DNA of 64,000 nt, taken from a virus (Duplodnaviria > Caudoviricetes). Below, piece after piece: positions 19,150-45,117 of this stretch. Position numbers and translations under genes: made by a program. Each line of letters opens with the position of its first letter. The stretch's first letter is position 1. Location: positions 1-64,000 of the IMG/VR virus record IMGVR_UViG_3300002026_001699; one strand, given 5' to 3'. The notes below the pieces were generated by a model that saw nothing but the letters and a program-made list of their open reading frames with translations, had not been told where the DNA came from and searched no databases.

Positions 19150-19548
19150 CTAAAATGTAATATATATTTTTTTGATTTGACCAAATTTCTTTATTGACAA
19201 ATAACCTATTTTTCCAGTTATCAATAACTTTTCTTGAATTTGAAAAGCCATAGAATCACAGAATGCTAGAAATTGAACTAGCACAATATTTCCTGCAATA
19301 TAAAAATCATCATCATGGAATTCACCAACTTCATGATTATTACTGCTTCTTTTAGATAATTTAATATCATCTAAATTTTTAAAAACTCTATACATAATAG
19401 AGAGTAATAGTTTTATATCTCTAGATTTATTATTTTGAGCAATTTTTTCATATATACTTGCAAATTTAATTTGCTTTGATTTTAAAGGTGGAAGATCTTC
19501 TAACAAGAATTTCCACTTTTCAATTAATTCACTATCTTGTTCTGTCAT
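19150..19548 (-). CDS. hypothetical protein
   Basis: 132-aa ORF coupled to the upstream gene. Confidence 0.6.
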   Translation of the reverse strand: MTEQDSELIEKWKFLLEDLPPLKSKQIKFASIYEKIAQNNKSRDIKLLLSIMYRVFKNLDDIKLSKRSSNNHEVGEFHDDDFYIAGNIVLVQFLAFCDSMAFQIQEKLLITGKIGYLSIKKFGQIKKIYITF

Positions 19549-20374
19549 TTATTAAATCCCTTGTTATCTCTAATGCGGCAGCAAAAGGATATTTACAACT
19601 CCACTTATCTAAATTTAATTCTTTAACATCTTCTTTTATTATAGAAGATTCACACTCTTTTATATCATATACTAAATTCAACTCCATAGAATTTGCCATA
19701 TAATCTATAGCATCTTCTAAAGATCTTGCATTATCATCCATAATTTGAATTGATTTATTTTTATATTTTTCTATATCAGATAAAATCATATCAACACCAT
19801 CTAGAAAATCATCTATAAAAGTATATTTTCTTTTATCTCCAAGATTAGCATAAATTACTGCCATATCAGATCTTCCAACTGAAGTCATTAATAATTGACT
19901 AATTGATCCATGAAAATCTTCAGGTCCAAATAATTCATCTGTTATTATTTCAATAACATCAATCCCCATATTTTTAAACATTAAAGAAATTGCATCTTGT
20001 GTATAATTAAACATATTATTAGGATGATTATTATATTTAATAAAAACAATTGGAATGTCTAATTTTTTAGCATGTTGAGCTATGTAATAACTCCCCTCAA
20101 TATTATTTCTAACCATCCAATGTGATTTATCATCTTCAGGAACTATCAAGGTAGCGGTGTGAATTATACATTCAACGCCTGATCTTTCTAATAGATTTTC
20201 AAGAGTAGGATCAAAAATATCTATTTCGGAGTGATGATCAAAAGAAAACTTTTTCTGTCTCCAATAATCATACATATCATTAAGATGAGAATTCTCAACA
20301 ATATGTTTGTGTGATAAATGCCTAACAAAGGCTCTAGAAACGAAACCATTCTCGCCTGTCATCCAAATTTTCAT
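19532..20374 (-). CDS. NAD-dependent epimerase/dehydratase-like (extended SDR), divergent
   Basis: KIWMTGENGFVS Rossmann motif, IIHTA, NNIEGS, LFGP and RKYTFIDDF; no clear YxxxK. Confidence 0.75.
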   Translation of the reverse strand: MKIWMTGENGFVSRAFVRHLSHKHIVENSHLNDMYDYWRQKKFSFDHHSEIDIFDPTLENLLERSGVECIIHTATLIVPEDDKSHWMVRNNIEGSYYIAQHAKKLDIPIVFIKYNNHPNNMFNYTQDAISLMFKNMGIDVIEIITDELFGPEDFHGSISQLLMTSVGRSDMAVIYANLGDKRKYTFIDDFLDGVDMILSDIEKYKNKSIQIMDDNARSLEDAIDYMANSMELNLVYDIKECESSIIKEDVKELNLDKWSCKYPFAAALEITRDLINDRTR

Positions 20375-20979
20375 TGTTCCTCCAAAAGTATTTTTTTATA
20401 TTTTTCTATAAAAGGTCTTCTAAGTTCATAATAAAATTCTTTTCCAGTTTGCGGGCTCATGATTATCAATTTCATTAGGTGTAATGTAAATTCTTCTAAT
20501 GTAAGATATGCCTTTATTCCATTATATCTAAAACCAGTAGCTTGTTCTATTTGTTCATCTTGTCTTTTATTCTTTAAACACGTTTTTCTATAATTAGATA
20601 CTGTTCTCTGTAATACAATCCTTGCCTTGCCAGGATCTGAAATATCTCCACCTGGAAAGAAGCAATAAAAATGTCCATTATATCCTTCAATTGCCTTATG
20701 CTTTAGAAAAGTTCCTCTAACAACATTAAATTTTAAAGGAACCCATTCTGTCTCAATAATAACATCACCTGAAGAAACTCTTGATTTAATATTTCTTATT
20801 TTAATTCTATCTAACTCTTGTTGAGATGGAGGAAAAACATCATCTAGTTGTGAAAAGTTAGCTATATAATTCTCCAAGATATTATGCTTTATTTCAAAAT
20901 TAAACATATCTTGTAAATAAGACAAAACAACCTTTTCAGCCTCTAAACCATACTCTTGATAGTTCTCCATGCACATCAC
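20371..20979 (-). CDS. hypothetical protein
   Basis: 202-aa ORF with RBS and GCATA motif upstream. Confidence 0.65.
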   Translation of the reverse strand: MMCMENYQEYGLEAEKVVLSYLQDMFNFEIKHNILENYIANFSQLDDVFPPSQQELDRIKIRNIKSRVSSGDVIIETEWVPLKFNVVRGTFLKHKAIEGYNGHFYCFFPGGDISDPGKARIVLQRTVSNYRKTCLKNKRQDEQIEQATGFRYNGIKAYLTLEEFTLHLMKLIIMSPQTGKEFYYELRRPFIEKYKKILLEEQ

Positions 20980-21021
20980 CTCTTATTAAACTATGCTTAA
21001 ATAGAGACAAATTTGTACAAT

Positions 21022-21318
21022 TTAAAAAGAAAATTGAATATCTATTCTGTCTGATAAAGCAGACATATTATGTGTTATTTGAATATTGAATGCTGTTGAA
21101 AAATTTTCCATTTTTAACACACTGTTTACTATTATAGTTACGTCATATTTTTCTTCAAGATACTTTAAACAATATATTAGTTTATGTTTTAAATCTTCAT
21201 TTATTAATTCAAATTGATTTTTTTCTATAAAATCAGTGACTACTTGTTTTACTTCTTTTTCAACACTATTTCCTAAAAGTAAATCTTTTGCTATTTCAGC
21301 TGTTGTTCGCATTTCCAT
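21022..21318 (-). CDS. hypothetical protein (AKxLLLG leader family)
   Basis: IAKDLLLGNS. Confidence 0.55.
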   Translation of the reverse strand: MEMRTTAEIAKDLLLGNSVEKEVKQVVTDFIEKNQFELINEDLKHKLIYCLKYLEEKYDVTIIVNSVLKMENFSTAFNIQITHNMSALSDRIDIQFSF

Positions 21319-22177
21319 AAAGCCACCTTAAAATTCTATATCCTGAATCATAGCCTATTGATAGAGGGTGCTCAATATTTGTAATAATATTAATTAAACA
21401 TTTTTCAGGCTCACCTTTTTCATTAATTAAATTTGTTGCCAAGTCTGGTGTGCTTGCTGGAGTAAATTCTTCTTTCATCATTTTTTCTATCTGCTCAAAA
21501 TTCTTTTCATAAATATGGAGGGAGTGAGCAATATGTGTATATGTTCCTATCTCTAACTCTGGATAAACTACTTTAAGGTGATTATACATTTGTTGTTGAA
21601 GCATAGTAAAAAATGGATAGTCAAATGTCAATCCAAAAAAGATATCATTACTTCTCATATCAACTGTAAAGTTTAATTTATTATTTCGTATTTGAAAATT
21701 ACCTATTAATGTGCAAACAAAATCTTTTACACCATTATATTGATGAGCGGGCCGGTTAAAATGCATAATGGCTTGTCTGGAATCTTTATCTTTAACAAGA
21801 GAATCATATGCCCATTGATATTGACTAAATCCATTTTCTGCATCCTTTAAATTAAATAAAAGATTTCCATAAGCAGAATTACATGTTCCATCTTCATTTG
21901 AAATATTTTTCCAAAATGAAGAAAAATTTGATATGAAACTTAGATCATTTCTCCCTGAAAAATACCATAGCAATTCACCAGCCAAATATTTCAATGGAAC
22001 ATCTCTTGCTTTATTAAGAAAGAGATTAGATGTTGGATCTTCATTGATTAAAATAGCATCACTTATTTCTTTAATCTTTTGTCCTCTTGGGGCAGACTCA
22101 TACTCAGGATTTGTCATCAATTCATTGCAAATATTTTTATATAGTTCAGCAAAATTCTTTCCCTTAATAACTCTCAT
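21296..22177 (-). CDS. thymidylate synthase homologue, dCMP hydroxymethylase type
   Basis: DSRQA, catalytic VCT, MRSNDIFFGLTFDY (Asp at the TS Asn177 position, as in T4 gp42 MRSNDVVFGFRNDY), SLHIYE. Confidence 0.85.
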   Translation of the reverse strand: MRVIKGKNFAELYKNICNELMTNPEYESAPRGQKIKEISDAILINEDPTSNLFLNKARDVPLKYLAGELLWYFSGRNDLSFISNFSSFWKNISNEDGTCNSAYGNLLFNLKDAENGFSQYQWAYDSLVKDKDSRQAIMHFNRPAHQYNGVKDFVCTLIGNFQIRNNKLNFTVDMRSNDIFFGLTFDYPFFTMLQQQMYNHLKVVYPELEIGTYTHIAHSLHIYEKNFEQIEKMMKEEFTPASTPDLATNLINEKGEPEKCLINIITNIEHPLSIGYDSGYRILRWLYGNANNS

Positions 22178-22981
22178 TTACATCTCCTTTAAATTATCAA
22201 TCAATGTATTAAAATAATCAACATTCTGTCCAGTAGATCCAAAAATTTCTATATCTATTTTTTTATCATCATAAATTGGTTTTATAAAATATTCATATAG
22301 TGTAATTATATCAGCAAATAATTCATATTGAATATCAGATGATCTAAAAACAAAAACAACCTTGTCATTTAAATAATGTATCATACTTAGACAAGATACA
22401 TCTAATTTTCCTTTTTCAGATTCTTCGTATTCACCTATTGAATTGGCTATTCTTACAACAGCTTTTCTTGAAGATCTATTATTAGAAAATATATTTCTAA
22501 CAGACTGTAATACTTGTTGATAAGTTAAAGAATTTCTTTGTTCAACTGAATGAGTATATATGCTTCCATCTAAAGATGGTAATAAGTCAAAAAACCTTAA
22601 AGATCCTCTCTCTTCAAGAAAAGGTTTAAAGTCATCTTTTGTAATATCTTTATTTTTAAATTTTTCTAATTTTAATAATATATAAGGATCTTTTATTTTA
22701 TTAATATCATATATAAAATCTTTAATTGTAAAAAGATAGGAATCATTTTCAAATAATGGTTTTTTATTTATAGTTATTTTCATTCTTTCAATCCTTATTT
22801 TTACAATTTCTTGGACATCTTCTCTTTGTGCTTTTATAACTTTAGCAATACAATCACCACAAAGATCCCCAATTAATTTAATAGTCAAAACATTCTTTTC
22901 AAAAGATACAAACTCACATATACCCCTTGATTCAAACATTTCTTTTAAATCTTGATTTATATAGTCTTTAAGATTTTTCAT
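22178..22981 (-). CDS. second, divergent thymidylate-synthase-like protein with an N-terminal CxxC (NifU-like) segment
   Basis: SSRKAV, VSCLS, FRSSDIQYELFAD; N-terminal LTIKLIGDLCGDC. Confidence 0.65.
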   Translation of the reverse strand: MKNLKDYINQDLKEMFESRGICEFVSFEKNVLTIKLIGDLCGDCIAKVIKAQREDVQEIVKIRIERMKITINKKPLFENDSYLFTIKDFIYDINKIKDPYILLKLEKFKNKDITKDDFKPFLEERGSLRFFDLLPSLDGSIYTHSVEQRNSLTYQQVLQSVRNIFSNNRSSRKAVVRIANSIGEYEESEKGKLDVSCLSMIHYLNDKVVFVFRSSDIQYELFADIITLYEYFIKPIYDDKKIDIEIFGSTGQNVDYFNTLIDNLKEM

Positions 22982-23591
22982 TCATTTTATTTATGACATC
23001 ATTTATCATATTCATTAAATAATCTTGATCTTTTAAAATATCAATCTTAACAAGCTTTGATTTATTAACTAAAACACCATCTGTTATAATTGACATTAAA
23101 TTATATTCATTCTCCTGAGTAAATTCAATATTTTCTTGAGTATAAATATCTTTTCTTGTTATTTCTTTGATTGGTTTAAAAAACAAAATTGTATCATATA
23201 AATTATTTACATGATCAAGCACTGTGTCAAACAGTTTTGATAAAAATTTATGATATCTTATTATGTCATCTGTTCCAAGACTTGATTTATCCATATAAAA
23301 AGTATAATAAAAATAACTATCAACAAGAGATCTATCTATTAAAATCAATTTATTATTAAATCTTTCGTTGATACTTTTTTCTGCATTTATTTTTTCACCA
23401 ATAATATCTAACTCTAAGTCAAGATATTTTGATGCACATTTTCTAATTTCATCAATATTACCAATATTAAGATCTCTTATTACTTCATCTAACAAAACAA
23501 CATCATTTGGATATAAATCCTTTATTGTTTTCATAAAAGTTGTTTTACCTGAATGAGAAGCACCTGAACATGCTATAATTAAATTATTCAT
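22968..23591 (-). CDS. P-loop nucleoside monophosphate kinase-like (AAA_28/dNMP kinase)
   Basis: SGASHSGKTT Walker A and ILIDRSLVDSY. Confidence 0.8.
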   Translation of the reverse strand: MNNLIIACSGASHSGKTTFMKTIKDLYPNDVVLLDEVIRDLNIGNIDEIRKCASKYLDLELDIIGEKINAEKSINERFNNKLILIDRSLVDSYFYYTFYMDKSSLGTDDIIRYHKFLSKLFDTVLDHVNNLYDTILFFKPIKEITRKDIYTQENIEFTQENEYNLMSIITDGVLVNKSKLVKIDILKDQDYLMNMINDVINKMNEKS

Positions 23592-23608
23592 ATTATCCCT
23601 TTTGAAAT

Positions 23609-23635
23609 ATGCCCCAGATTGTTAGTCTGGGGCAT
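23609..23635. terminator. GC-rich intergenic hairpin (terminator or processing site)
   Basis: atgccccaga-ttgttag-tctggggcat; weak T-tail. Confidence 0.45.
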
Positions 23636-23639
23636 TAAT

Positions 23640-23810
23640 TTAAACTTCTATATTGTCATCATCAAAATCATCATCAGGACCATATCCATCTTCATCATCT
23701 TCATCATTAGCATAATCATCGTCATCATCATACTCTGTCCCTATATCATCATCTTCAAAATTATCTTCTACATCATCTTCAAAGTCATCATCTTCGAACT
23801 CATCATCCAT
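23640..23810 (-). CDS. hyperacidic 56-aa peptide (not in ORF track)
   Basis: GGAGGAG RBS; MDDEFEDDDFEDDVEDNFEDDDIGTEYDDDDDYANDEDDEDGYGPDDDFDDDNIEV; 35 D/E, no K/R. Confidence 0.8.
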   Translation of the reverse strand: MDDEFEDDDFEDDVEDNFEDDDIGTEYDDDDDYANDEDDEDGYGPDDDFDDDNIEV

Positions 23811-23823
23811 AAACTCCTCCTAT

Positions 23824-25557
23824 TTATTCCTCATATGTCCCTATCAAAAGATAAGGCTTCTTGAGACCTAACTCATTAGCTCTATCAAGCTGATACTTAA
23901 AGTCATCAATTGCATGTGCTGCTGAAAAGACAATTGGCTTTCCATGAACATTGTAAGATGTATTAATCAAGGCTTTTGTAGTTCCTTCAACTTTCTTGAG
24001 AATCAAAGAAACAGTTGAATTATCATCTTCAACAACCTGAGGACGCCCTGAATAAAGATCTTCATTTGGATATTTATGCATGATTCCTGAATAAAGTTCA
24101 CAATATTGAATTGTATAATCATATGTAAGAATCATAAACCCATCTGATCCAATTGTCTTTTCATACTGTTCTTTATCAAAGAAATAATCAAGATTTTTTC
24201 TTAACATAATTGGAGCCATTGGCATTACAGTATTTCTCTTATTATAAGTATTAATCAACTCTACATTTTCCTTAAATGGAATTGCATAAGTAGTTGTATG
24301 GCACAGAGCTCTAGGCCCAAACTCCATACTTCCTAATACAACTTGCGGAATTTGATTATCCTTTATTAAAGAAGCAACTCTGTCTGCCATTTCCTGCTTT
24401 GTATTATAAATTTCAACATTTTCAGGGAGAGTCTTAATATCTATATTACTAACCTCTGTCTTTAGATCTCTATGACCCCAGAAAAGATTTGAGAAATCGA
24501 AATCACCAATGTTATTTATATAATGACCAATTGCCGCTCCTTGATCTCCGGCTAGAGGCATAACACAAAATGAATTGCACTCTTTTGCAAGTCTATTGTT
24601 TAATTTAACATTATAGAAAATACCACCATTTACAATAAGCGCTCCATTAGAATGTTTCCTTACAAAATGTGTTGCCACACCCTCAAGAACAGTTTGGATA
24701 AAATTACCAATAACAGTTCTAAGATTAAACTTATCATCATCTCTTGTAAATACAAGGGAGTTTACAAGCTTATCAAGTCTTGCATAGTGATCCTTCTTTA
24801 CTTTATTAAGAGCATCAATATCAATATAATAAGGATCAGATACTCTTTTTGAAATTGATGATTCAAGCCCATAAATCATTTCATCAATAAAACTATTTGC
24901 GGCAGTCTGAAGAATTTCAAAATTCTTATCATTAAGAACTTCATGAATATGAGATTCATAACCAAGGAATTTATATTCATCCTGGTTTTCTTTCATACCA
25001 CTATAAGATGTTGCATACTGATAAAACATTCCAAGAGAGTTTTCATAACCATATGATCTATGGAATAATTCAATATTTCTAAGACCAATGTTATTATAAG
25101 TAAGTCTATAAAGAGACATTACTTCTTGCTTATTTCCAAAACCATCTGCTACCATAATCATGGCATCATAATTTTCTCCACCGTGGAATTCATAGAAACC
25201 AGTGGCTGCATAAGCATGTGCATCATGGTGAGTAAAGTCTTCACCAAGAGATACTACTTTAAAACCATAATCATTTATAAGAGAATTGATATAATCCTGA
25301 TTCCAATACTTGGAATGAATTTTCTCATTCTTGTTTGTTTGAAACTCAAAATCATCAAACCAATGAGAAACAAAAACCACATTCTCTTCATCTTTTGAAG
25401 GTTTTGCAAAATTAATGCATTTAATAGCACTTTCTAATGGAAAGATTGAAGATGATTTTAGCCTCTCATGTCTTTCTTCCTCATATCCAGCAATTACTTT
25501 TCCATCTCTTACAGCAATAGCAGAAGAGTTATGTCCAAGTGTCAATAATAGTTCCAT
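23824..25557 (-). CDS. carbamoyltransferase (NodU/CmcH/TobZ family)
   Basis: GHNSSA, EEERHERLK, HHDAHA, VADGFG, EYKFLG, GGIFYNVKLN, GDQGAAIG, EFGPRAL, INTSYNVHGKPIV. Confidence 0.93.
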   Translation of the reverse strand: MELLLTLGHNSSAIAVRDGKVIAGYEEERHERLKSSSIFPLESAIKCINFAKPSKDEENVVFVSHWFDDFEFQTNKNEKIHSKYWNQDYINSLINDYGFKVVSLGEDFTHHDAHAYAATGFYEFHGGENYDAMIMVADGFGNKQEVMSLYRLTYNNIGLRNIELFHRSYGYENSLGMFYQYATSYSGMKENQDEYKFLGYESHIHEVLNDKNFEILQTAANSFIDEMIYGLESSISKRVSDPYYIDIDALNKVKKDHYARLDKLVNSLVFTRDDDKFNLRTVIGNFIQTVLEGVATHFVRKHSNGALIVNGGIFYNVKLNNRLAKECNSFCVMPLAGDQGAAIGHYINNIGDFDFSNLFWGHRDLKTEVSNIDIKTLPENVEIYNTKQEMADRVASLIKDNQIPQVVLGSMEFGPRALCHTTTYAIPFKENVELINTYNKRNTVMPMAPIMLRKNLDYFFDKEQYEKTIGSDGFMILTYDYTIQYCELYSGIMHKYPNEDLYSGRPQVVEDDNSTVSLILKKVEGTTKALINTSYNVHGKPIVFSAAHAIDDFKYQLDRANELGLKKPYLLIGTYEE

Positions 25558-25590
25558 TCTTTACTCCTTATCTATATTATAATAATTATG

Positions 25591-26013
25591 CTAATTACTT
25601 AGAGCTATTTTAGCGTTATCAACTATAATTTCTTTTTCTATGTCTATTTTTTTTAAATTACTACAAAGCATACACTCTAATGGTATATATGTATTTGCAA
25701 CTTTAATAAAATCTTTATATGAGTTGTCAATGATATTGATTTTTTGAAATGATTTTAAATTTAAACAACTGTATTGACTCTCATAAATAAATTGTTTCAT
25801 AATTTGAAAATCTTTAAGAGTGTTATCTAAACAATCAATAATTGAATTTAATGATCCTGCTAATCTTACTAAATCAAAGTTTAATTGTTTAGTTTTATCA
25901 AATTCAGTAATAAAATTATATTGAGTATAATCTATATAAACAGGACATGTTATTTTATCACAAGAATTAATCAAAGCAAACCTTCTTTTTAAAGAAATCA
26001 CAAGTGTTATCAT
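25591..26013 (-). CDS. hypothetical protein
   Basis: 140-aa ORF; start uncertain. Confidence 0.5.
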   Translation of the reverse strand: MITLVISLKRRFALINSCDKITCPVYIDYTQYNFITEFDKTKQLNFDLVRLAGSLNSIIDCLDNTLKDFQIMKQFIYESQYSCLNLKSFQKINIIDNSYKDFIKVANTYIPLECMLCSNLKKIDIEKEIIVDNAKIALSN

Positions 26014-26194
26014 TTGGAATATTTAATCCAAATTTATGGAAATTACTCCATTCATCTGATCCAATAGTTTGAATTTCTATTTCTTGTTTTGCTCTTTCTA
26101 TAGAATGACACCCTAATCCTGTAAATAAATAATTACCAAAATTAGAACAGTTATCACATATATGTCCAAGCAAAAGAGTTTTAGCATCTGTCAT
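25967..26194 (-). CDS. small Cys-rich protein (AKxLLLGxxCxxC family)
   Basis: AKTLLLGHICDNC; paralogue of the adjacent 26194-26451 gene. Confidence 0.7.
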   Translation of the reverse strand: MTDAKTLLLGHICDNCSNFGNYLFTGLGCHSIERAKQEIEIQTIGSDEWSNFHKFGLNIPNDNTCDFFKKKVCFD

Positions 26195-26451
26195 TATTCA
26201 TCTCCATCATAATATATACATGTATTTTCTTTTGGCAAATCAAGTCCTTTTGATCTAAATAATCTCCATTCGGCTGAATTGATGCTTTTAATTTCAAAAT
26301 CTTTTTTAGCTCTTACTGTGGATTTACAGCTTCTATGATTGTTGATTTTAACATTATAATAAAAACATCTATCACATGTAAATCCAAGTAAAAGATTTTT
26401 GGCTATCTCATTTTCCTGTTGATCCAAATCCACCTTCACCTCTAATAGCAT
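26194..26451 (-). CDS. small Cys-rich protein (AKxLLLGxxCxxC family)
   Basis: AKNLLLGFTCDRC...ENTC. Confidence 0.7.
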   Translation of the reverse strand: MLLEVKVDLDQQENEIAKNLLLGFTCDRCFYYNVKINNHRSCKSTVRAKKDFEIKSINSAEWRLFRSKGLDLPKENTCIYYDGDE

Positions 26452-26917
26452 CAGGCTTCATCCAATCATAAAGATCCTCTTCATCACAAAGTGTAAGATC
26501 ACAAGATAGAATTGGAACCATAACCATCTGAGCAAGTTTCATACCTTCAACAACTGAGAAAGGATCATTTCCAACATTATGAAGATCAACATGAACTTCA
26601 CCTGAATAAAAAGTATCAATAACCTGAGCACCAATGAGCATATCACTTTTTGAAGCAACTCCACTCTTGTTTAAGAAAAGACCCATATATCCATATGGTA
26701 TTTCTACTTTTACACCAGAAGGAATTACAGCATTACATCCAGGAGGAATAGCCATTCCCTTGTCTGTAAAAACAACATGAGCATTTGCTTCCTTGGATGT
26801 AAAATCTTTGATAAATTGTTCATCCATTTTTGGGCACATAAAATCTATACCTGCATCAGTTGCATGACCTCGAGATGGCATTTTAACATTTCTAATAGTT
26901 GCATACTTTAATAACAT
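26408..26917 (-). CDS. dut: trimeric dUTPase
   Basis: DAGIDF, NKSGVA, VIDTFYSGEV, LAQMV, RGEGGFGSTG. Confidence 0.92.
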   Translation of the reverse strand: MLLKYATIRNVKMPSRGHATDAGIDFMCPKMDEQFIKDFTSKEANAHVVFTDKGMAIPPGCNAVIPSGVKVEIPYGYMGLFLNKSGVASKSDMLIGAQVIDTFYSGEVHVDLHNVGNDPFSVVEGMKLAQMVMVPILSCDLTLCDEEDLYDWMKPDAIRGEGGFGSTGK

Positions 26918-26934
26918 TTTTAACTCCTAATTTT

Positions 26935-27213
26935 TTATTCTTCTATGAGATAAAAGAAATCTTTATCACCTATACTTTTAATAGTTATTTTAACAATTTT
27001 ATTTTCAAAATCTTGATCAATATCATAAAAAGAAATATCTTTATTAAACTCATAAGCTTTTAATAATTTATGAGCATTTTCTATAATCTCTTTTCCATGA
27101 TCATTAAACTCAAATTCTTTGAATAAAAACTCAACTTGTTTTTGTATTTCTTTCTTTTTTAATTTATCCATTCTTATTCCTCTGAAGATATTTTTTCTAA
27201 AACTATTCCACAT
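26935..27213 (-). CDS. hypothetical protein
   Basis: 92-aa ORF, probable start MDKLKK. Confidence 0.55.
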   Translation of the reverse strand: MWNSFRKNIFRGIRMDKLKKKEIQKQVEFLFKEFEFNDHGKEIIENAHKLLKAYEFNKDISFYDIDQDFENKIVKITIKSIGDKDFFYLIEE

Positions 27214-28592
27214 GAATTTAATAAAAATTTACTATTAGCACTTGATTTATCATAATCATGAACAAAATAAATTTTGTTTGGTTTTAATGCCGCTAATATT
27301 TTTGAACAATGAATACATGGTTGCATTGATGTATATATATCAATATCTTCAAGCTGAATCCCGTTTTTTGCAGATTCACATATTAAAGATTGTTCTGCAT
27401 GAATTTCATGTTCATTAGACCAATTATGATGTAGTTCTCTCCATTCATCGGTTAAAACCCATTCATTATATGGTATAGATATACCTAATGAAATATGCAA
27501 ATTATGAAAATAATCATCACAATTTATATAACCAGATGGTGTTCCATTTATTCCAGTCGCAATAATTCTTCCATTTTTTACCGCTATAGCAGCAACTTTT
27601 TTACTTTCACAATGTGATTCTTTTGCATAAATATCCACTATTTGAGAAAATAACTTTTTATTTTTTTCTTCATTTTTTTTATAACTAACATATTCATCAA
27701 AGAAACCATAATCAATATCTCTTGAAGAGAAGAAATCAAGTGAATTGTTATTTAAACAATTTTCTATAAAACAAATAATATCATCAGTAGTAGAAAAATC
27801 ATTTTCCCATATAATAATATATTTTATATCAATATTTCTTTTAACCTCATAAAGACAGTTATAAGCTTTTTTTATTTCAAACATATAATCTTTTTTGCTA
27901 AATTGTTTAAACTTAGTAAAATCTTTATGCCAATAAATACCATTATATTCTAATATATATTTTTTATCTATAAAAGCATCATGTAAAAAATTTTTTTTAT
28001 TATATAATTGTTTTAATTCTTCATTGATAACTGGAGAATAAAAATCTTCAACAAGATGATTATTTTTTAATATTTTTTTTATCTCTAATTCAACTAGAGA
28101 TTCATTGTTTCTATTTACTAAAGATGATGCTAAAGCTCCTGGTTTTCTTGTTTCACAAAACTCCATGTTGTATGTAAAATCCTTTCTTTTTTCTTTTATA
28201 GATAATTGTCCTTTTTTAAAAAAATCTTTTAAAAGTCCTTTTGATTCTTCAAGATTCCAACCTCTTTTAATCCAATATTCTATATTATGGTTTTTAAAAG
28301 ATTTAATTTCATTAAATTCATCTATAAACAATAAAAATATATTTATATCCGTAGAAATAGCCTTTTGTTTTAAATCATATATAATATCATAATTAAAATT
28401 ATCATCCTTCAATATAGAATCAAAACAACTTATATCAGAATCTGAAAAAAATAATCTTATTTTTTTAAAATATCTTAATTCATGAAATTCGTTTGCTTTT
28501 TCTATATCTAATCCTTTAGAAAAAAAAGATTCCCAGTTTAACCACTTAGATTTAATATTTTTATCAATTATTAAAAACTCTTCTTTATTCAT
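27174..28592 (-). CDS. dCMP deaminase fused to an N-terminal Vsr/DUF559-like endonuclease region
   Basis: C-terminal SHCESKKVAA, GINGTPSG, HAEQ, PCIHC; upstream HDAFIDKKYILEYNGIYWH. Confidence 0.82.
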   Translation of the reverse strand: MNKEEFLIIDKNIKSKWLNWESFFSKGLDIEKANEFHELRYFKKIRLFFSDSDISCFDSILKDDNFNYDIIYDLKQKAISTDINIFLLFIDEFNEIKSFKNHNIEYWIKRGWNLEESKGLLKDFFKKGQLSIKEKRKDFTYNMEFCETRKPGALASSLVNRNNESLVELEIKKILKNNHLVEDFYSPVINEELKQLYNKKNFLHDAFIDKKYILEYNGIYWHKDFTKFKQFSKKDYMFEIKKAYNCLYEVKRNIDIKYIIIWENDFSTTDDIICFIENCLNNNSLDFFSSRDIDYGFFDEYVSYKKNEEKNKKLFSQIVDIYAKESHCESKKVAAIAVKNGRIIATGINGTPSGYINCDDYFHNLHISLGISIPYNEWVLTDEWRELHHNWSNEHEIHAEQSLICESAKNGIQLEDIDIYTSMQPCIHCSKILAALKPNKIYFVHDYDKSSANSKFLLNSCGIVLEKISSEE

Positions 28593-28629
28593 TCTTTAAC
28601 CTCAATTAAAACATATCTAGCCTTAGTAT

Positions 28630-28899
28630 TTACATCCATATATCTAAAGTATGCTTATAATTCTCACAAACGTGAGATTCAGGATCACTAACCACAACAT
28701 TTTGATTCTCAAAATCAAAGAAACAAATACTTTCTAAAACAAGTTTTAGAGGTATATACTTTTTTAAATCTATTTCATATACCTCATTTGGATTTTTTAA
28801 TTCTTTTTTTAGAAACTTACAATTATTGCAATTGTTCCCAAGTAATAACATTTTGGCTTTTTCATTTGGTTCCATATATATTATCTTTATGATTACCAA
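28630..28899 (-). CDS. small Cys-rich protein (AKxLLLGxxCxxC family)
   Basis: AKMLLLGNNCNNCKF. Confidence 0.65.
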   Translation of the reverse strand: MVIIKIIYMEPNEKAKMLLLGNNCNNCKFLKKELKNPNEVYEIDLKKYIPLKLVLESICFFDFENQNVVVSDPESHVCENYKHTLDIWM

Positions 28900-29710
28900 A
28901 CCAACACTGTTCTCTTAATGGGCAGTTTTCTGCTTTTTTAAGATTTTCACTGTTTTCATTTAATATTTCTTGGAGTGTTTTTTCTTTTAAGGATCCTAAA
29001 GATTCAACTATTCTGTGTGATTGACATAATCTAACAGTAGCATCTGGCATAATTGTTATTTCATTTTGAATAGATGTGCATTGGTAGTCTTCTTTTGTTA
29101 TCCATCTCAATAAATATTCAAAATTCTTTTGTGTCAAAACACCTTGTTCATTCAATGTTTTTAAATTTTCTCTACTTATTGCAGGCCATGTAAATTGTTC
29201 ATTATTATAATAATATCCTTTTTGATATATATTAAAATAAGGCTGCTTCATTTTAGGAAATATTGTTAAGAGTTTCTTGATAAACAAAGCATCTACATCA
29301 ATAAATGGAAGATTATATTGACTCATTGTATATGACAATCTTTGAATAGTATCAGCAGATTTTAATGATGTTAATAAATATATAAGATCAGAAGTAAATG
29401 GTTTTCTTCCTCTTATATTATCGTTCATAACTCCATCCCAATTCATTGATATATATGGAATCGAGCGTGGATAGTTTATTATTTTAGAAACATCTTCAAG
29501 GTGAGTTGTAAGAATATAATTTTTTTTATCTTTAAAAATATCTAACACTTGATTAAAATCAGGTCTTAGTGTAGGCTCTCCTCTAAGAATAAACAAATCA
29601 TCTTCATTATACAATTTTTGAATGATATTTCTATCTAATTGTTGATTAGAAGTAAGAGGTTTTTTATTGTAATTTACGAAATAATCATTCAAAAAAAGTG
29701 ATATTTTCAT
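28862..29710 (-). CDS. degenerate radical-SAM/SPASM-like protein lacking CxxxCxxC
   Basis: RGEPTLRPDF (GGEP-like) and a SPASM-like C...ITIMPDATVRLC...C...C; no N-terminal Cys triad. Confidence 0.6.
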   Translation of the reverse strand: MKISLFLNDYFVNYNKKPLTSNQQLDRNIIQKLYNEDDLFILRGEPTLRPDFNQVLDIFKDKKNYILTTHLEDVSKIINYPRSIPYISMNWDGVMNDNIRGRKPFTSDLIYLLTSLKSADTIQRLSYTMSQYNLPFIDVDALFIKKLLTIFPKMKQPYFNIYQKGYYYNNEQFTWPAISRENLKTLNEQGVLTQKNFEYLLRWITKEDYQCTSIQNEITIMPDATVRLCQSHRIVESLGSLKEKTLQEILNENSENLKKAENCPLREQCWFGNHKDNIYGTK

Positions 29711-29962
29711 TTAAAACCTTTCAACTAAAACTGTATTTTTAGCATTAAAATAAAATTCCATCCAATCTTGTTTTTCTTGTATTTCCAACTTTTCATTTTC
29801 TAATAAAATTAAATAATTTACATATGCTTGTGAATCACATAATTTTTCAGTTGTTGATCTAAAGTCATTCAAAACTGAAAATCTTTTATGAGCCATCTTT
29901 TCAATAAACTGTGAATTCTTTTCCTTATTCGGCCCAATAACATTATAATATACCTTATTCAT
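29711..29962 (-). CDS. hypothetical protein
   Basis: 83-aa ORF coupled to prs. Confidence 0.55.
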   Translation of the reverse strand: MNKVYYNVIGPNKEKNSQFIEKMAHKRFSVLNDFRSTTEKLCDSQAYVNYLILLENEKLEIQEKQDWMEFYFNAKNTVLVERF

Positions 29963-30921
29963 TCTTGCTCCTTTTCAAATAATAAACCAACAGAATCATC
30001 AGCATTAACTGCTTTTATTACACGGCAAAGTAAATCTCCTAATGATACTACTTTAAATATATCAGGAAGTTCATCATGATAAATAGAATCTGATACAAAA
30101 AGTTTATCTATTGGAGATTTTTGTATTCTTTCAATTGCTCCACATGAAAGAATTGCATGAGTTGCACAAACATATATATTTTTTGCTCCTCTAATTTTTG
30201 CTTCTTCTGCTATATGACAAAGCGTTCCTGCCGTATCAATAATATCATCAACAATTAAAACATCTTTATCTTTAACATCACCAACAAATGCCAAAACTTT
30301 TGATTCATTATCCTTTGGTCTTGATTTATATGCAAAACCAAGATCTGCCCCAAATCTATTTGCATATGCTTTTGCTCTTGATACTCCACCTGCATCTGGA
30401 GATAATACAATTACATTTCCGCTCTTAAATAAATGTTCAACAGCTGGATAGAAAATATAAGAAGATGTTATATTATCAATAAGAATATCATCAAAAGCAG
30501 CAGCCGATGCTTGATTATGAAGGGAGACAGTAATGATTCTTTTTATTCCTGAGGCTTGTAATAAATCAGCCATTAGTTGAATAGTTATAGGAGTTCTTGG
30601 TTCTGTTTTTCTATCTTGTCTGCTTCCATAAATATAAGGAATAACTGCTGTAATTCTCCTTGCTGATGCCTTCTTTGCAGTATGTGCCATAATAAACAAC
30701 TCCATCATGTCTTTAGCAGGATTATTTGGAGTTGTTGTCTGTAAAATATAAACGTCTTCGCCTCTTACACTTTCATCAATCTTAACCTTCATTTCACCAT
30801 TAGAAAAATCAGTAAACTTCATACTTGACAATCCAAAACCATTAGCATCAGAAATACGTTTTGCTAAAACTGGGTTGGATCTTCCAGAAAAAAACTTTAA
30901 TTCAGGAAGTCTTGCAGCCAT
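29959..30921 (-). CDS. prs: ribose-phosphate pyrophosphokinase (PRPP synthetase)
   Basis: FSNGE, ESVRGEDV, PYIYGSRQDRK, SPDAGGV, VDDIIDTAGTL, ATHAIL. Confidence 0.95.
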   Translation of the reverse strand: MAARLPELKFFSGRSNPVLAKRISDANGFGLSSMKFTDFSNGEMKVKIDESVRGEDVYILQTTTPNNPAKDMMELFIMAHTAKKASARRITAVIPYIYGSRQDRKTEPRTPITIQLMADLLQASGIKRIITVSLHNQASAAAFDDILIDNITSSYIFYPAVEHLFKSGNVIVLSPDAGGVSRAKAYANRFGADLGFAYKSRPKDNESKVLAFVGDVKDKDVLIVDDIIDTAGTLCHIAEEAKIRGAKNIYVCATHAILSCGAIERIQKSPIDKLFVSDSIYHDELPDIFKVVSLGDLLCRVIKAVNADDSVGLLFEKEQE

Positions 30922-30923
30922 GT

Positions 30924-31213
30924 TTAATTCTCCTTTAATAACTCTTTTGCTTTCAATGAAATCAATTCTTCTAATTCTTTTTTTTCTACTAAATTATTAA
31001 ACTTGGGATTGCTTAATTTAAAAGTGTCTGAATAATTTGCAGATACTTTTATTAATTTCCCTCTCCTTCACAAACTCTACATAATTCTGATTCATAATCA
31101 GAGGTATGATGTCCAACATCAACCCATCTAAAACCCTTCCCTTTACAATCATGACAAATAACTATTTCTGAATGTCCATATAAAGATAAATATTTGTCAA
31201 GCACCTCATCCAT
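30924..31213 (-). pseudogene. CxxCxGxG zinc-finger protein with an apparent 1-nt frameshift near 31055
   Basis: MDEVLDK...CHDCKGKG...CRVCEGEG, then TAA at 31054-31052; the shifted frame stays open (LIKVSANY...LLKEN*) up to the prs RBS. Confidence 0.55.
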
Positions 31214-31215
31214 AA

Positions 31216-31407
31216 TTATCTCCTAGGTATTTTATTCTCAACATTCTTAACCATTTGTCTTAATTTTCTTTCCAAGATTGACATGTTATTATTTGTAATA
31301 ATATTTTTTCTAAATAAGTCATTAAACTTTTTTTCTAAATTAATATAGTTTAGTTTTAATTCCTCAAATTCTTTTTTTGAAACTCCTTCATCTAGTTTTT
31401 GATTCAT
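31216..31407 (-). CDS. coiled-coil hypothetical protein
   Basis: Probable start MNQKLDEG, with ATGA overlap. Confidence 0.6.
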   Translation of the reverse strand: MNQKLDEGVSKKEFEELKLNYINLEKKFNDLFRKNIITNNNMSILERKLRQMVKNVENKIPRR

Positions 31408-32507
31408 TTTTCTCTCCTGTTGTGTTTTATAGTTGCTGATATTTTTTGTGCCTGATCCATTATGCCATCCATTTCCATGAAAGACCATGAACCATTTCTA
31501 CCAGCAAAAATAATATTCTCATATTGCTTATCTTTGTGTGAGATTATTCCAGATGTATGTTGATTGTAAATCTTGAAATTATTTTTTGTGGGAATTGGAA
31601 AGATTGCTTGATCACTATCATCAATAAATGTTTTTACAATAATGTTCTTTTCATAATCATTATTATAATTATCTTTTTTAAAAAACTTTCCAAATTGTGT
31701 CATATAAACAAATGGAGTGTGATTAGGATATATCATTGTATCAGGAGAACCTGATTTATACTTTGTTGAATCAATATCAAAAGAACAGTGAGAATATATT
31801 TTATTTTTTAGATTTAAAAAAGAGTTGATATCTATTGTAGATATAATAATGTCATTAGAAGAGAATGATGATAAATCAACTTTTGAATTTAATCTAACAT
31901 CTACATTTTTAGTAAAATCATCAAACAGTTTATTCCATCCGGTATTTATTGGGAATAATATATATTTTTCATTATAATGAGAAAAATTAGAATGAACATC
32001 TCTCATATTGCCTTTAAACCAATCAACTATATCCAAATTAGATGTTCCAAAAAGTCGCTTAAAATAATTTTCATAAAATACATTATAAACAGTGTTACCA
32101 TAAAAATTTGTAATAAGTTGTTCAATATTTTGAGCATTTTCCCCATTAGATTTTTCAAGATCTAAAAGAATAGATTCTTTCCAATGCCATGGCATTGTAT
32201 CAATGGATGCTTTATTAAATGGATGATTATAATATCTAAAATCAAATAGAGGGTCCATGGCAACAACATAATCAATAGGCTGTAAAGAAACAGATTTTGA
32301 AAATAAATCAACTATCCAATCTTTATTAGTATGAAGAACGGAAGGAACTTGTTGCCATGGAATATTTTCTATACTTTGTCTTGTGCGTATGAGACCACCT
32401 AACTCTGATGTTTTTTCATAAAGAATAACATTAAAATCTTTAGATAAAAAATAAGCAAAAGCACAACCAGATATGCCTCCGCCTATTATGTGAATGGTCT
32501 CACTCAT
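31404..32507 (-). CDS. glf: UDP-galactopyranose mutase-like flavoprotein
   Basis: IIGGGISG FAD motif, LYEKTSELGG, FYGNTVYNVF-like segment, FAGRNGSWSFMEMD (cf. GRLGEYxYxDMD). Confidence 0.75.
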   Translation of the reverse strand: MSETIHIIGGGISGCAFAYFLSKDFNVILYEKTSELGGLIRTRQSIENIPWQQVPSVLHTNKDWIVDLFSKSVSLQPIDYVVAMDPLFDFRYYNHPFNKASIDTMPWHWKESILLDLEKSNGENAQNIEQLITNFYGNTVYNVFYENYFKRLFGTSNLDIVDWFKGNMRDVHSNFSHYNEKYILFPINTGWNKLFDDFTKNVDVRLNSKVDLSSFSSNDIIISTIDINSFLNLKNKIYSHCSFDIDSTKYKSGSPDTMIYPNHTPFVYMTQFGKFFKKDNYNNDYEKNIIVKTFIDDSDQAIFPIPTKNNFKIYNQHTSGIISHKDKQYENIIFAGRNGSWSFMEMDGIMDQAQKISATIKHNRREK

Positions 32508-37628: not shown

Positions 37629-38165
37629 TTAATTGTAGATAAAGTTATAATATTCTTGTTCTGTGTCAAATATTATTTTTTTATTTGAATTGTAACATTC
37701 TTCGTCTCTTTGTTTAAATGGTATTTCTTTTTCTATAGGTAGGAGTCCAAAATGTGTCATATAGAAGCCTTTATCTTCTGCCATTTTCCATACTTCATCA
37801 CATCTAGAATCTGGTCCTTTTATTAAAAAAATGGATGAAGGGATAAATTGCTTTTTAACACAATGAACAGAAAATTTTAATTGTTCAATAACAAAAGTGT
37901 ATATAGTAGCATGTTTATATCCTATATATTTTATTTTATTTCTAATTAATTTATGTTTAACTTTATCAATATCACATACTATATCTATATCACCAACAGT
38001 TTCACATCCTCTTGAATATGATCCACCTATAATATAATCTGGGAATATTTCTTGAATGAATTCTTGATATTTTTCTAATATTTCTTGAGCTTTTTCTCTA
38101 GTTAAGCGGACATATTTTGCATTCATCTCCACCCCTATTCTGCATTTTAAACATAATATTTTCAT
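37629..38165 (-). CDS. minimal X-family DNA polymerase (PolX/pol beta-like palm+thumb)
   Basis: IIGGSYSRGCETVGDIDIV, KGP...AEDKGFYMTHFGL, FDTEQEYYNFI; probable start MNAKY. Confidence 0.75.
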   Translation of the reverse strand: MKILCLKCRIGVEMNAKYVRLTREKAQEILEKYQEFIQEIFPDYIIGGSYSRGCETVGDIDIVCDIDKVKHKLIRNKIKYIGYKHATIYTFVIEQLKFSVHCVKKQFIPSSIFLIKGPDSRCDEVWKMAEDKGFYMTHFGLLPIEKEIPFKQRDEECYNSNKKIIFDTEQEYYNFIYN

Positions 38166-38961
38166 CTAATTTAAAATCTTTATTAAAGATATTACCTAAA
38201 TATCCTGATTTAGCTGCAAGACAACATGAATACATATCACCATTATATAAAACATATGGAGTTTTTGCTGTATTACATTTTTTATATTTTCTGATTTTTA
38301 AATCTTGGTTTAAATATCTTGAATAATATTGAGAATCCTCTGACGTAGGATATAATTCATCAATTAATTTTTGTTTTAATTCTAAATCATCAATTTCATT
38401 GATACCAAAATCGAGACCAGAAATCCAATAATATTTTTCTAATGCAATACTTTTATACATAAAATCATCTATTTCATTTTCATTGTATTTTGATATAATC
38501 ATCTTTAAATGATAATTGATTTTATATTCATCAAGTTTTTGAATATTATAAATAACATTATCAATTTTTCTTCCAGTTAATTTTAAATAAGTTTCAGGGT
38601 TAAATGAATGAAGGGAGATGTATATTTCACTTATTGTATCTTTAATAAGTTTAAAATCTAAATTAGGCATGTTAAGATTAGTTGTGAGGGTAGTTGTTAT
38701 TTTTCTTTTTTTTATTTCTGACAGAATGTCATTAATTCTAGGATGAATAAGAGTTTCACCTCTTCCAACAATCCTCAAGAATGTTGGTTGGTAAATATCT
38801 AATATTTTGATAAAGTTATCAAATTCAATATGTTGTTTTGGGTGCAGATCAAATCTTTGTCCAAAACACATTTTACAATCATTATTACATATTGAAGATA
38901 TTTCTATTTGTAATGGTTTTCCATCATTATAAAAATAAAGAGAATTTATCTTGTTTTTCAT
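38098..38961 (-). CDS. radical SAM protein with SPASM/twitch domain
   Basis: CNNDCKMC, GRGETLIHP, TTNL, C...YNGDMYSCC...CKIC. Confidence 0.9.
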   Translation of the reverse strand: MKNKINSLYFYNDGKPLQIEISSICNNDCKMCFGQRFDLHPKQHIEFDNFIKILDIYQPTFLRIVGRGETLIHPRINDILSEIKKRKITTTLTTNLNMPNLDFKLIKDTISEIYISLHSFNPETYLKLTGRKIDNVIYNIQKLDEYKINYHLKMIISKYNENEIDDFMYKSIALEKYYWISGLDFGINEIDDLELKQKLIDELYPTSEDSQYYSRYLNQDLKIRKYKKCNTAKTPYVLYNGDMYSCCLAAKSGYLGNIFNKDFKLDENIMFKMQNRGGDECKICPLN

Positions 38962-44076: not shown

Positions 44077-45117
44077 TTAAACGTCTAAAACTCTGTCTTC
44101 TTTATTTTCTAGTTTTTTACTTGTTTTGACTGCCATTTTTTCATTGTATTTTGTTGCTGAAAGAGTAGCTTTGTCTTTAAGTTTAGCAAAAACCTTATCA
44201 ACAGAAATGCCAGAAGCAATAGTTATATATTGTGGAAGATTCTTATCTTCAACTCTTAAAACACCAAAAATAGTACGAGCACTTTTAATACTATTATTAA
44301 TCTTCATAGTAACTTGCATAAGTTTATCACTTTCAATCTGTGTTGTTTCTTTATTATGTTTTACATTAATAAGCTTTGTAATAAGAACATTTGCCGATTC
44401 ATTAAACTTTCCATAAGAAAATTTTGGTATTTTTGGTTTTCCAGTTTCTTGAAAATCCTCTTCAAGATTATCATAAGAAACGTTAATAAATCCTCCTGAA
44501 AAGGCAACAGAAGAATGGTCTTCTTCATCAATTGCAAATGGTGTAAATGAGTTATTATCATGCAAGTATGGAAGATCTGTTATATGTCTAACCTTTTCTA
44601 CAATTCTATTATTAATTTTTTCAAATGTCATTGTTCCAATTTCTTTACCAACATCATCATTAGCTGCTACATAAACACTCATATTATTTGAGAATTCAGC
44701 AACACGTGAAAGAAGACGAGTTGCATTAGATGTTGCAGGAATAGATTCTGCTAGGAATGGTGTTGCTACAACAAGAAGAATCCTATTATTCTGTTTCATA
44801 AGAATATTTAAGAATGTTATAACAGAAGATGATCCTGATCCTCCTCCACCAGATACAAAGTATACAACATCTTGATCTTCAACTGTTGCAAGATATTTTT
44901 CAAGAATTTCTCTGTTTTCAGCCCAAATTTTCAATCCCTTAGAATAAGACTGACCTGCTCCACCATTTACAATAAGATGATCATTACCAAGTTTAATTCC
45001 GCCTGAATCTCTGTGATCAGTATTAAATGTTAAAAGTACATCATTTTTCTGTGCGTAAAGTGAAGCTAGTCTTGTTCCAACCTGACCAACTCCAATTACT
45101 GTTTTATATTTTGCCAT
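44077..45117 (-). CDS. tubulin/FtsZ-family GTPase (TubZ/PhuZ-like)
   Basis: IGVGQVG T1 loop, GGAGQ T3 loop, VSGGGGSGSS tubulin signature, and IDEED in the T7-loop position. Confidence 0.85.
   Translation of the reverse strand: MAKYKTVIGVGQVGTRLASLYAQKNDVLLTFNTDHRDSGGIKLGNDHLIVNGGAGQSYSKGLKIWAENREILEKYLATVEDQDVVYFVSGGGGSGSSSVITFLNILMKQNNRILLVVATPFLAESIPATSNATRLLSRVAEFSNNMSVYVAANDDVGKEIGTMTFEKINNRIVEKVRHITDLPYLHDNNSFTPFAIDEEDHSSVAFSGGFINVSYDNLEEDFQETGKPKIPKFSYGKFNESANVLITKLINVKHNKETTQIESDKLMQVTMKINNSIKSARTIFGVLRVEDKNLPQYITIASGISVDKVFAKLKDKATLSATKYNEKMAVKTSKKLENKEDRVLDV

Follow-up and report, generated by a model that had tools for sequence, protein, structure and literature searches.

A candidate 5-carbamoyloxymethylcytosine module with an additional thymidylate synthase-fold protein in a large uncultured phage from microbial mats

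The phage record IMGVR_UViG_3300002026_001699 raises the question of what a dense cluster of nucleotide- and sugar-type enzymes would do to the cytosines of viral DNA. The window analysed here is the first 64 kb of this 72,158-bp IMG/VR viral contig, and the cluster occupies 13 kb of it (positions 19532 to 32507). A preliminary description had listed there a thymidylate synthase (TS) homologue, a second TS-like gene, a deoxynucleoside monophosphate (dNMP) kinase, a full carbamoyltransferase, a short-chain dehydrogenase/reductase (SDR) epimerase, a flavoprotein resembling UDP-galactopyranose mutase (UGM), a phosphoribosyl pyrophosphate (PRPP) synthetase, a dUTPase, a dCMP deaminase and a degenerate radical S-adenosylmethionine (rSAM) protein, all of which were found in place on the minus strand. 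It had also proposed that 5-hydroxymethylcytosine (5hmC) is made and then carbamoylated, and that a second, sugar-type cytosine modification exists besides. Homology, signature residues and a conserved gene order speak strongly for the first proposal, and we consider it likely that the locus encodes a pre-replicative pathway for replacing cytosine, of the known 5-carbamoyloxymethylcytosine (5cmC) type; the second is not upheld. The extra TS paralogue, rightly picked out as odd, is a compact TS-fold protein (mini-TS) that goes beyond the published pathway. The features of the module, with the matches that identify them, are the following (E, E-value; ORF, open reading frame; AF2, AlphaFold2).

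21296..22177, minus strand: TS homologue, 293 aa, predicted dCMP hydroxymethylase (5-hydroxymethyl-dCMP, 5hm-dCMP, synthase); Pfam PF00303, E 7e-25
22178..22981, minus strand: mini-TS, compact TS-fold protein, whole ORF; AlphaFold, Foldseek, VIA and hhalign
22178-22783, minus strand: mini-TS core, residues 67-267; relatives, about 201 aa in length, align to it from Met67 onwards
22784-22981, minus strand: mini-TS N-terminal extension, 66 aa, containing CGDC; without counterpart in the relatives that were aligned or listed
22968..23591, minus strand: P-loop nucleotide kinase, 207 aa, predicted 5hm-dCMP kinase; Pfam AAA_28 (34.5 bits), PHROG thymidylate kinase
23824..25557, minus strand: O-carbamoyltransferase, 577 aa; Pfam Carbam_trans_N (PF02543) and Carbam_trans_C (PF16861)
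26408..26917, minus strand: trimeric dUTPase, 169 aa; Pfam and NCBIfam dUTPase
27174..27680, minus strand: dCMP deaminase domain, residues ~305-472 of a 472-aa ORF (27174-28592); dCMP_cyt_deam_1 (E 2e-16), PHROG (E 9e-36)

Carbamoyltransferase and full-length TS homologue

The carbamoyltransferase is complete, with a Kae1-like N domain and a YrdC-like C domain (Pfam), and its metal site reads HHDAH (in THHDAHAYAA), an instance of the HxxxH pattern. The characterised phage enzyme of this type carbamoylates 5hmC in DNA, RNA and 5hmdCTP, also acts on 5hmCTP, is inactive on 5mdCTP and 5hmdUTP, and yields stable 5-carbamoyloxymethyldeoxycytidine (5cmdC) in vitro (Yang et al., eLife 2021; PMC8670742). 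According to the same study, the positions that best discriminate modification-associated enzymes are W408, G421 and R423 of TobZ, and co-occurrence of the carbamoyltransferase with TS and dCMP deaminase is limited to contigs selected for modified cytosine (PMC8670742). With the TobZ numbering placed by spacing and not by direct alignment to TobZ, the window enzyme has Val, Cys and Thr at these positions, reading V...MEFGPRALCHTT; the assayed 5hmC carbamoyltransferase, its sequence taken as printed (PMC8670742), has I, C and T, reading I...MEFGPRALCNTT; and NovN, a generic O-carbamoyltransferase, has W, G and R (W...EFGPRALGNRS) at exactly equal spacing. A motif survey of the 120 best of more than 1,300 metagenomic homologues scoring below 1e-20 found C-x-T/S at the discriminating positions (GPRALC-x-T/S) in about 117. 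The nearest counterparts in cultured phages are those of Bacteroides phage BF503P1 (B. fragilis phages; 40% identity) and of Acinetobacter phage Effie and Xanthomonas phage Xp15 (38%). Judged from its sequence, the window enzyme is a member of the clade that holds the characterised 5hmC carbamoyltransferase.

The full-length TS homologue has MilA (4e-21) and T4 gp42 (4e-19) as its best solved relatives, and the MRSND...TFDY stretch, which had already drawn attention as MRSND...FDY, aligns to MRSND...RNDY of T4 gp42. In E. coli (Ec) numbering, its DFVC motif holds L143D and Cys146, MRSND retains Arg166, Ser167 and Asp169, TFDY contains N177D, and SRQ retains Arg126 with Gln in place of Arg127. 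The exchange of Asn177 for Asp confers cytosine specificity (PMC8670742), while an acidic residue at L143 together with a retained Asp169 marks hydroxymethylation and D169N marks 5-hydroxylation (Lee et al., NAR 2026; PMC13326640). Deoxyribose preference is marked by Arg126' and Ser167, Ala at the latter position being the ribo-preference residue of MilA type, and Arg126' and Arg127' in TS-family active sites come from the partner chain (PMC5175136). The homologue thus carries both the hydroxymethylase set (Cys146, acidic L143, Asp169, N177D) and the deoxyribose set (Arg126', Ser167). The combination of D169N and N177D that characterises 5-hydroxy-dCMP synthases, which are flavin-dependent TS homologues, occurs neither here (MRSND) nor in the mini-TS (FRSSD) and, since both keep Asp169, neither TS-fold protein should be a 5-hydroxycytosine (5hoC) synthase. 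The residue pattern is that of a predicted dCMP hydroxymethylase, with the replacement of Arg127 by Gln as its single oddity.

Gene order in related loci

Related loci (designated by L numbers, plus the P0010 contig) preserve the arrangement. The order carbamoyltransferase, kinase, mini-TS, TS, with dUTPase and deaminase alongside, is found in L003, L004, L006, L007, L009, L013 and the P0010 contig, with carbamoyltransferase identities of 44-74% across these loci and with one exception in L013, where a uracil-DNA glycosylase (UDG)-like gene interrupts the order. Simpler forms are seen in L005 (kinase-TS-carbamoyltransferase) and in Bacteroides phage BF503P1 (carbamoyltransferase-kinase-TS). 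The kinase adjoins the carbamoyltransferase in every relative examined (34-59% identity in L001-L009, 36% in L013), and its relatives additionally match dNK; a comparison with solved structures gave no useful match (a single chance-level one, E 0.17). The dUTPase has all the canonical motifs (KSG..SK, G.QVIDTFYSGE, RGEGGFGSTG) and is present in the module of L001, L003, L004, L006 and L009, and the dCMP deaminase is free-standing in L003, L004 and L006.

A UDG-superfamily gene lies beside the carbamoyltransferase in L003, L004, L007 and L013, accompanied in L003 by a Tad6-like gene. No UDG-like or Tad6 homologue was detected in the window, in which the stretch 23592-26407 has three small unknown ORFs (140, 75 and 85 aa) where the relatives have the UDG-like and Tad6 genes.

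The compact TS-fold protein

Sequence searches with the mini-TS against Pfam (its TS model included), PHROG, NCBIfam and PDB gave no match. Its AF2 model (pLDDT 85) nevertheless has the TS fold, in agreement with its earlier labelling as TS-like: the top Foldseek match is T4 dCMP hydroxymethylase (E 5e-7), with a VIA Z-score of 12.8 and an rmsd of 4.0 over 172 aligned residues, followed in VIA by MilA (Z 12.2) and a phage dCMP hydroxylase (Z 11.5), the canonical TS being lower (Z ~10). An hhalign comparison of the mini-TS family with the alignment of the module TS sequences (E 6e-5) brings the motifs SR(K/R)AV, D-V-S-C, F-R-S/A-S-D and F-x-D into register, so that the protein has the fold, Cys nucleophile, Arg166, Asp169 and Arg126/127 of the TS superfamily. 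The His207/Tyr209 clamp on the sugar 3'-OH is missing; by a motif-level alignment only, D-x-H-x-Y is replaced by G-S-T-G-Q-N, and the family consensus at this position is S-T-x-Q-N.

An exhaustive profile search of 1.84 billion representatives returned a family of about 98 clusters. Among 35 diverse members, Tyr142 and Lys104 are present in all, and Asp194 (L143D), Cys197, Arg213 and Asp224 (N177D) in 34 each; Arg172/173, the equivalents of Arg126/127, are near-invariant. At the Ser167 position 33 of the 35 have Ala and the window copy has Ser. All eight readable genomic contexts (the window, L003, L004, L006, L007, L009, L013 and the P0010 contig) place the gene inside a carbamoyltransferase module, with the kinase on one side and TS or dUTPase on the other, and never with a TS alone; the contig of one more member, at 2.5 kb, is too short for a judgement of context. 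The family is missing from L005 and from the Bacteroides phages, which retain the carbamoyltransferase. In the window the TS and mini-TS genes abut, stop next to start. The N-terminal extension is modelled with an AF2 confidence of 60-73, and the chance of 66 stop-free codons at 27% GC is roughly estimated at 0.3%; only one relative, P0131, has an extension, which is shorter and unrelated.

By these signatures the mini-TS is a conserved extra member of the module, with the predicted nucleophile and phosphate-binding set intact, and it is the sole component that the published pathway does not explain. No description of it was found in the literature searched. Our best guess, weakly held, is that it serves as a partner subunit or as a second catalytic subunit of the hydroxymethylase.

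Proposed pathway

Considering the TS signature, the clade residues of the carbamoyltransferase and the conserved gene order, the best reading of the locus is that 5hmC is made and then carbamoylated. The full-length TS homologue would act on dCMP and methylene-tetrahydrofolate, with water attacking the exocyclic methylene to give 5hm-dCMP, which the adjacent P-loop kinase would convert to 5hm-dCDP and the host NDP kinase to 5hm-dCTP. This would be incorporated by the phage DnaE. The carbamoyltransferase, using carbamoyl phosphate and ATP via carbamoyl-AMP, would carbamoylate the 5-hydroxymethyl oxygen, with single-stranded DNA, nascent DNA or the triphosphate as substrate. The dCMP deaminase and dUTPase would supply dUMP to a thymidylate synthase and keep dUTP low; this synthase is assumed to be that of the host, since neither ThyA nor ThyX was found in the 72-kb record.

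Several points weigh against this reading. Its chemistry is predicted from folds, signature residues and gene order. A short-motif search of the 120 best homologues did not find the assayed carbamoyltransferase, and for that reason the window enzyme is probably less than about 40% identical to it. No dCTPase of the MazG/PRA-PH type was found in the 72 kb, so that complete replacement of cytosine is not assured, although about half of the genome lies outside the record. Finally, the published route gives no reason for keeping a second TS-fold enzyme with conserved catalytic residues, and the end product may therefore differ from plain 5cmC. It is conceivable, if doubtful, that the published two-enzyme 5cmC route is incomplete here and that the mini-TS is a third catalytic component, either as the obligate heterodimer partner of the Arg127-less hydroxymethylase or as the catalyst of another reaction at C5, whose substrate could for instance be of ribo type or carbamoylated, with a virion cytosine adduct besides or instead of 5cmC.

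Sugar-type and flanking genes

The remaining genes of the 13-kb region are the following.

19532..20374, minus strand: degenerate extended-SDR-fold protein, 280 aa; Pfam Epimerase match to residues 4-111 only
20371..20979, minus strand: unknown protein, 202 aa; no family match, AF2 pLDDT 58
27681..28592, minus strand: N-terminal part of about 300 aa fused to the deaminase; no Pfam match, motif EYNGIYWH
28862..29710, minus strand: rSAM-like protein; SPASM-like tail only, E 1e-4
29959..30921, minus strand: ribose-phosphate diphosphokinase (PRPP synthetase, Prs); NCBIfam NF002320, 322 bits against a cut-off of 297
31404..32507, minus strand: UGM/GLF-fold flavoprotein, 367 aa; 1i8t, E 1.4e-7 with the single sequence and 1e-30 with the family profile

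For the protein previously called an SDR epimerase, only the fold stands. Its Atlas structure matches epimerase/dehydratase clusters with TM-scores of 0.83-0.86 (solved structures gave no match), but with the motifs placed by eye there is no catalytic Ser (FIKYNNH) and YxxxK is replaced by YTQDA in the window and WTQEC in L007. The genes for the SDR-fold and 202-aa proteins are shared with L007 only, and are not in L004 or L006/L009, which keep the module. The 202-aa protein has weak Foldseek matches, mostly to nucleases (best E 0.14), and a PD-(D/E)xK nuclease fold is a weak lead from its model.

A similar split applies to the flavoprotein, whose UGM/GLF fold is genuine (Atlas TM-score 0.85) and whose N-terminus has the FAD-binding GGGISG, of the GxGxxG pattern. 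Compared with E. coli UGM, R278 is replaced by Tyr (Ser in the family), Y311, Y346 and W156 by Phe, and R170 by Lys. R278 (R305 in the Dr enzyme) is the essential Arg that binds the diphosphate in UGM, and Tyr 311 and 346 belong to the substrate-binding set as well. Going by these residues, part of the UDP-sugar binding set is lost. The rSAM-like protein is indeed degenerate, with a SPASM-like tail and no CxxxCxxC. A split of its gene from the cluster-binding part was considered and rejected, as the abutting upstream ORF (83 aa) has no Cys motif either. The flavoprotein and rSAM-like genes are both present in L003, L010 and L011, the rSAM-like protein being 75% identical in L003 and 37% in L011/L012.

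Prs, identified by its NCBIfam match as a genuine PRPP synthetase, is a variably present auxiliary metabolic gene; it is missing between the flavoprotein and rSAM-like genes in the close relative L003. In L011/L012, a 137-kb tubulin/DnaB phage contig, flavoprotein (43%), rSAM-like protein (37%), Prs (71%) and dUTPase (50%) occur in the same order, and no carbamoyltransferase, TS, kinase or mini-TS was found within the 12 kb read past the dUTPase, on the side where the module lies in the window. Prs is 71% identical to L011:15669-16631, the neighbouring shared genes being only 37-50% identical, which suggests recent exchange or an unusually strong constraint. No GT1 or GT2 glycosyltransferase was found in the 72-kb record (about 48% complete), and no glycosyltransferase family appeared among the Pfam matches of ORFs of at least 170 aa in the window and at least 100 aa in the last 8 kb, in line with the earlier remark that none was clear in the window. 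In view of the lost residues (SDR, UGM-like and rSAM-like proteins) and of the lack of co-variation with the module, the SDR-like, UGM-like, rSAM-like and Prs genes are taken to be backbone or auxiliary neighbours and not pathway parts. A DprE1/DprE2-like epimerisation of ribose to arabinose, starting from PRPP, was also considered and rejected, the flavoprotein having the UGM fold, the SDR being degenerate and Prs unlinked.

The part of about 300 aa fused in frame to the deaminase is unrelated to it and missing from the deaminases of the relatives. To the eye, its EYNGIYWH motif looks like a homing-endonuclease remnant, which would lie outside the pathway. In L003 (6975-8324) it is the dUTPase that carries a fused GIY-YIG domain, the deaminase standing alone. 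It seems that, in this lineage, genes of nucleotide metabolism acquire fusions with mobile endonuclease genes.

Alternative explanations

A second, sugar-type cytosine adduct, for which Prs, the UGM-like and the SDR-fold proteins would build a furanose donor and the second TS the acceptor, appears very improbable. The genes do lie on one strand within 13 kb, the UGM and SDR folds are real, the UGM of phage RL38JI is part of a cytosine glycosylation route (PMC13326640), and a glycosyltransferase could lie elsewhere with about 48% of the genome in hand. Against this stand the loss of the catalytic Ser and YxxxK from the SDR (of its Tyr too in L007) and of the diphosphate-binding Arg and two Tyr from the UGM-like protein, the occurrence of the UGM-like, rSAM-like, Prs and dUTPase genes in L011/L012 with no module in the 12 kb past the dUTPase, the absence of Prs from the same spot in L003, the modules of L004 and L006/L009 that do without the SDR and 202-aa ORFs, the glycosyltransferase searches, and Asp169 in both TS-fold proteins, by which neither should be a 5hoC synthase. 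Another alternative concerns the substrate. The module could act on free nucleotides or RNA, or make a nucleoside compound (mildiomycin- or bacimethrin-like), instead of replacing virion cytosine: the best solved relative of the TS is MilA, a CMP hydroxymethylase, the characterised carbamoyltransferase is active on RNA and 5hmCTP (PMC8670742), and most of the mini-TS family has the ribo-preference Ala at Ser167. The long TS, however, has the deoxy-type Arg126 and Ser167, the module lies among replication genes next to DnaE and includes a dCMP deaminase, a dUTPase and a dNMP-kinase-like gene, and contigs selected for modified cytosine in DNA are the only ones on which carbamoyltransferase and TS were found together (PMC8670742), which makes this extremely unlikely.

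The two other alternatives concern the role of the mini-TS. One, compatible with the 5cmC pathway, is that TS and mini-TS form a heterodimeric hydroxymethylase in which the mini-TS, as a structural or activating subunit, gives its Arg pair in trans to the Arg127-less (SRQ) long subunit, as could happen in a family whose active sites take Arg126' and Arg127' from the partner chain (PMC5175136). A hint of this is the co-occurrence of (S/T)RQ with a second TS-fold gene: the long TS of the window, L003, L007, L006 and L013 and TS-a of BF503P1 have (S/T)RQ, spanning three lineages (the window clade, L013 and Bacteroides phage BF503P1), and in each the second TS-fold partner keeps RR or RK, while the TS of L005, in which no second TS-fold gene was seen, keeps RR. 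The adjacent stop and start of the two genes would also fit. L004 breaks the pattern (SRR in the TS, STR in the mini-TS), the independent lineages are few, and the almost invariant Cys and Asp177 of the mini-TS would be unneeded in a purely structural subunit, so we regard a heterodimer as rather unlikely. It is highly unlikely that the carbamate serves as a leaving group, the mini-TS attacking C6, either in carbamoyloxymethyl-(d)CMP or in the base within DNA, expelling carbamate and regenerating the exocyclic methylene, on which another nucleophile would be installed to give an undescribed C5 adduct. This idea is purely one of chemical analogy, to the phosphate activation of 5-hydroxymethyluracil (5hmU) in thymidine hypermodification. 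The mini-TS does keep Cys, the Arg set, Asp169 and Asp177, in a protein that has lost the His207/Tyr209 clamp and any Pfam TS match, and it is confined to carbamoyltransferase modules in the readable contexts; but the module has no conserved candidate for an enzyme that would transfer the nucleophile, the carbamoyltransferase persists without the mini-TS family in L005 and the Bacteroides phages, and 5cmdC is stable in vitro (Yang et al., PMC8670742). The 5cmC pathway is thus retained as the preferred reading.

Genomic setting

The record is about 48% complete (CheckV), with about half of the genome outside it, and the window has a GC content of about 27%. From about 10 to 52 kb the minus strand carries nearly all genes, as a replication and nucleotide-metabolism block with a DnaE-type polymerase split into pieces by inteins, DnaB, primase, a tubulin homologue, a class I ribonucleotide reductase with an intein and a gp32-like single-stranded DNA-binding protein. 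DNA of the contig is contained in microbial-mat metagenome runs from one study, with no RNA run among the sequencing runs listed, and the carrier is a large, uncultured phage from microbial mats with a DnaE polymerase and a tubulin gene. A megablast search of the 13-kb region against phage records gave zero matches, and a related-loci search with the single carbamoyltransferase sequence as query returned no relatives. Promoter and terminator scans of the window gave the same counts as shuffled sequence, so operon boundaries cannot be drawn.

Elsewhere on the minus strand of the window are genes for tubulin/FtsZ-family (44077-45117), multi-PAS-domain (45493-46920), REC-HD-GYP phosphodiesterase (1953-2921) and ankyrin-repeat (571-1260) proteins, the tubulin and PAS genes being found in L011 as well. 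A genuine radical SAM enzyme (38098-38961, minus strand; Pfam E 2e-14) is encoded directly upstream of a DNA-polymerase-beta-palm-like nucleotidyltransferase (37629-38165, minus strand), and this pair is kept in L010 (69% and 53% identity). In L010 (11030-21065), a 104-kb metagenome contig, synteny with the window ends at the UGM-like gene and cellular-looking genes follow, one with a Por_Secre_tail domain (type IX secretion system, T9SS), typical of Bacteroidota; this junction is either a hint at the host or an assembly chimera. The last 8 kb of the record encode an NT5C-type 5'(3')-deoxyribonucleotidase (L016:3350-3928, contig 67350-67928, minus strand; Pfam E 5.5e-22), which could bear on pool control in a cytosine-replacing phage, as well as a peptide deformylase and an intein-bearing RecA/Rad51-like gene.

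Comparison with known systems

The pathway itself has been known since 2021, and the locus offers a divergent version of it from a new lineage of phages, a module variant with a fixed kinase and mini-TS. Carbamoyl-5hmC is among the newest known DNA bases, with a single enzyme assayed so far, and the locus puts the 5cmC module into a large DnaE/tubulin phage lineage of microbial mats, in which it always includes the kinase and the compact TS-fold protein. Should the mini-TS prove to be a catalyst or an indispensable partner, it would have to be included when 5cmC DNA is produced in a heterologous host and when the resistance of phages to restriction and CRISPR is predicted. More generally, a UGM fold, an SDR fold or Prs near a TS homologue is not evidence for DNA glycosylation unless catalytic residues and co-variation have been checked.

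The published 5cmdC route (PMC8670742) resembles the window in its two-domain TobZ/NodU-type carbamoyltransferase with residues other than W/G/R at TobZ 408/421/423, in the adjoining Asp177 TS homologue and in the accompanying dCMP deaminase. It differs in that the window and its clade of DnaE-polymerase phages hold the fixed P-loop kinase and the 200-aa TS-fold protein, undescribed there, and in that the PRA-PH/MazG partner reported there is missing from the record. The hmC pathway of phage T4 likewise combines a TS homologue (gp42, whose Cys148 and Asp179 have equivalents here and which is also acidic at L143) with a kinase of its own and a dCMP deaminase (cd), and it shares the pre-replicative logic. 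In T4, however, the hydroxyl is capped by alpha- and beta-glucosyltransferases, whereas a carbamoyltransferase would do so here; the kinase is gp1 there and of AAA_28/dNK type here; the dCTPase gp56 has no counterpart found here; and the polymerase here is of DnaE type.

In the glycosyl-5hoC pathways of RB69, DLP3 and RL38JI, TS homologues with N177D and L143D/E also adjoin a nucleotide kinase. D169N 5-hydroxycytosine synthases feed these phage routes to arabinosyl- and galactosyl-5hoC, which include a UGM, added in RL38JI (PMC13326640); here, by contrast, neither TS-fold protein has D169N, no glycosyltransferase was found, and the UGM-fold protein is without the UDP-binding residues. MilA and BcmA (PMC5175136), finally, are close in two respects, MilA being the best solved relative of the long TS and the mini-TS family having Ala at Ser167 in 33 of 35 members. 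They differ from the module in that its long TS is of the Arg/Ser deoxy type, its mini-TS has Arg, not Lys, at 126 and no equivalents of His216 and Tyr218, and its context is phage replication, not antibiotic biosynthesis.

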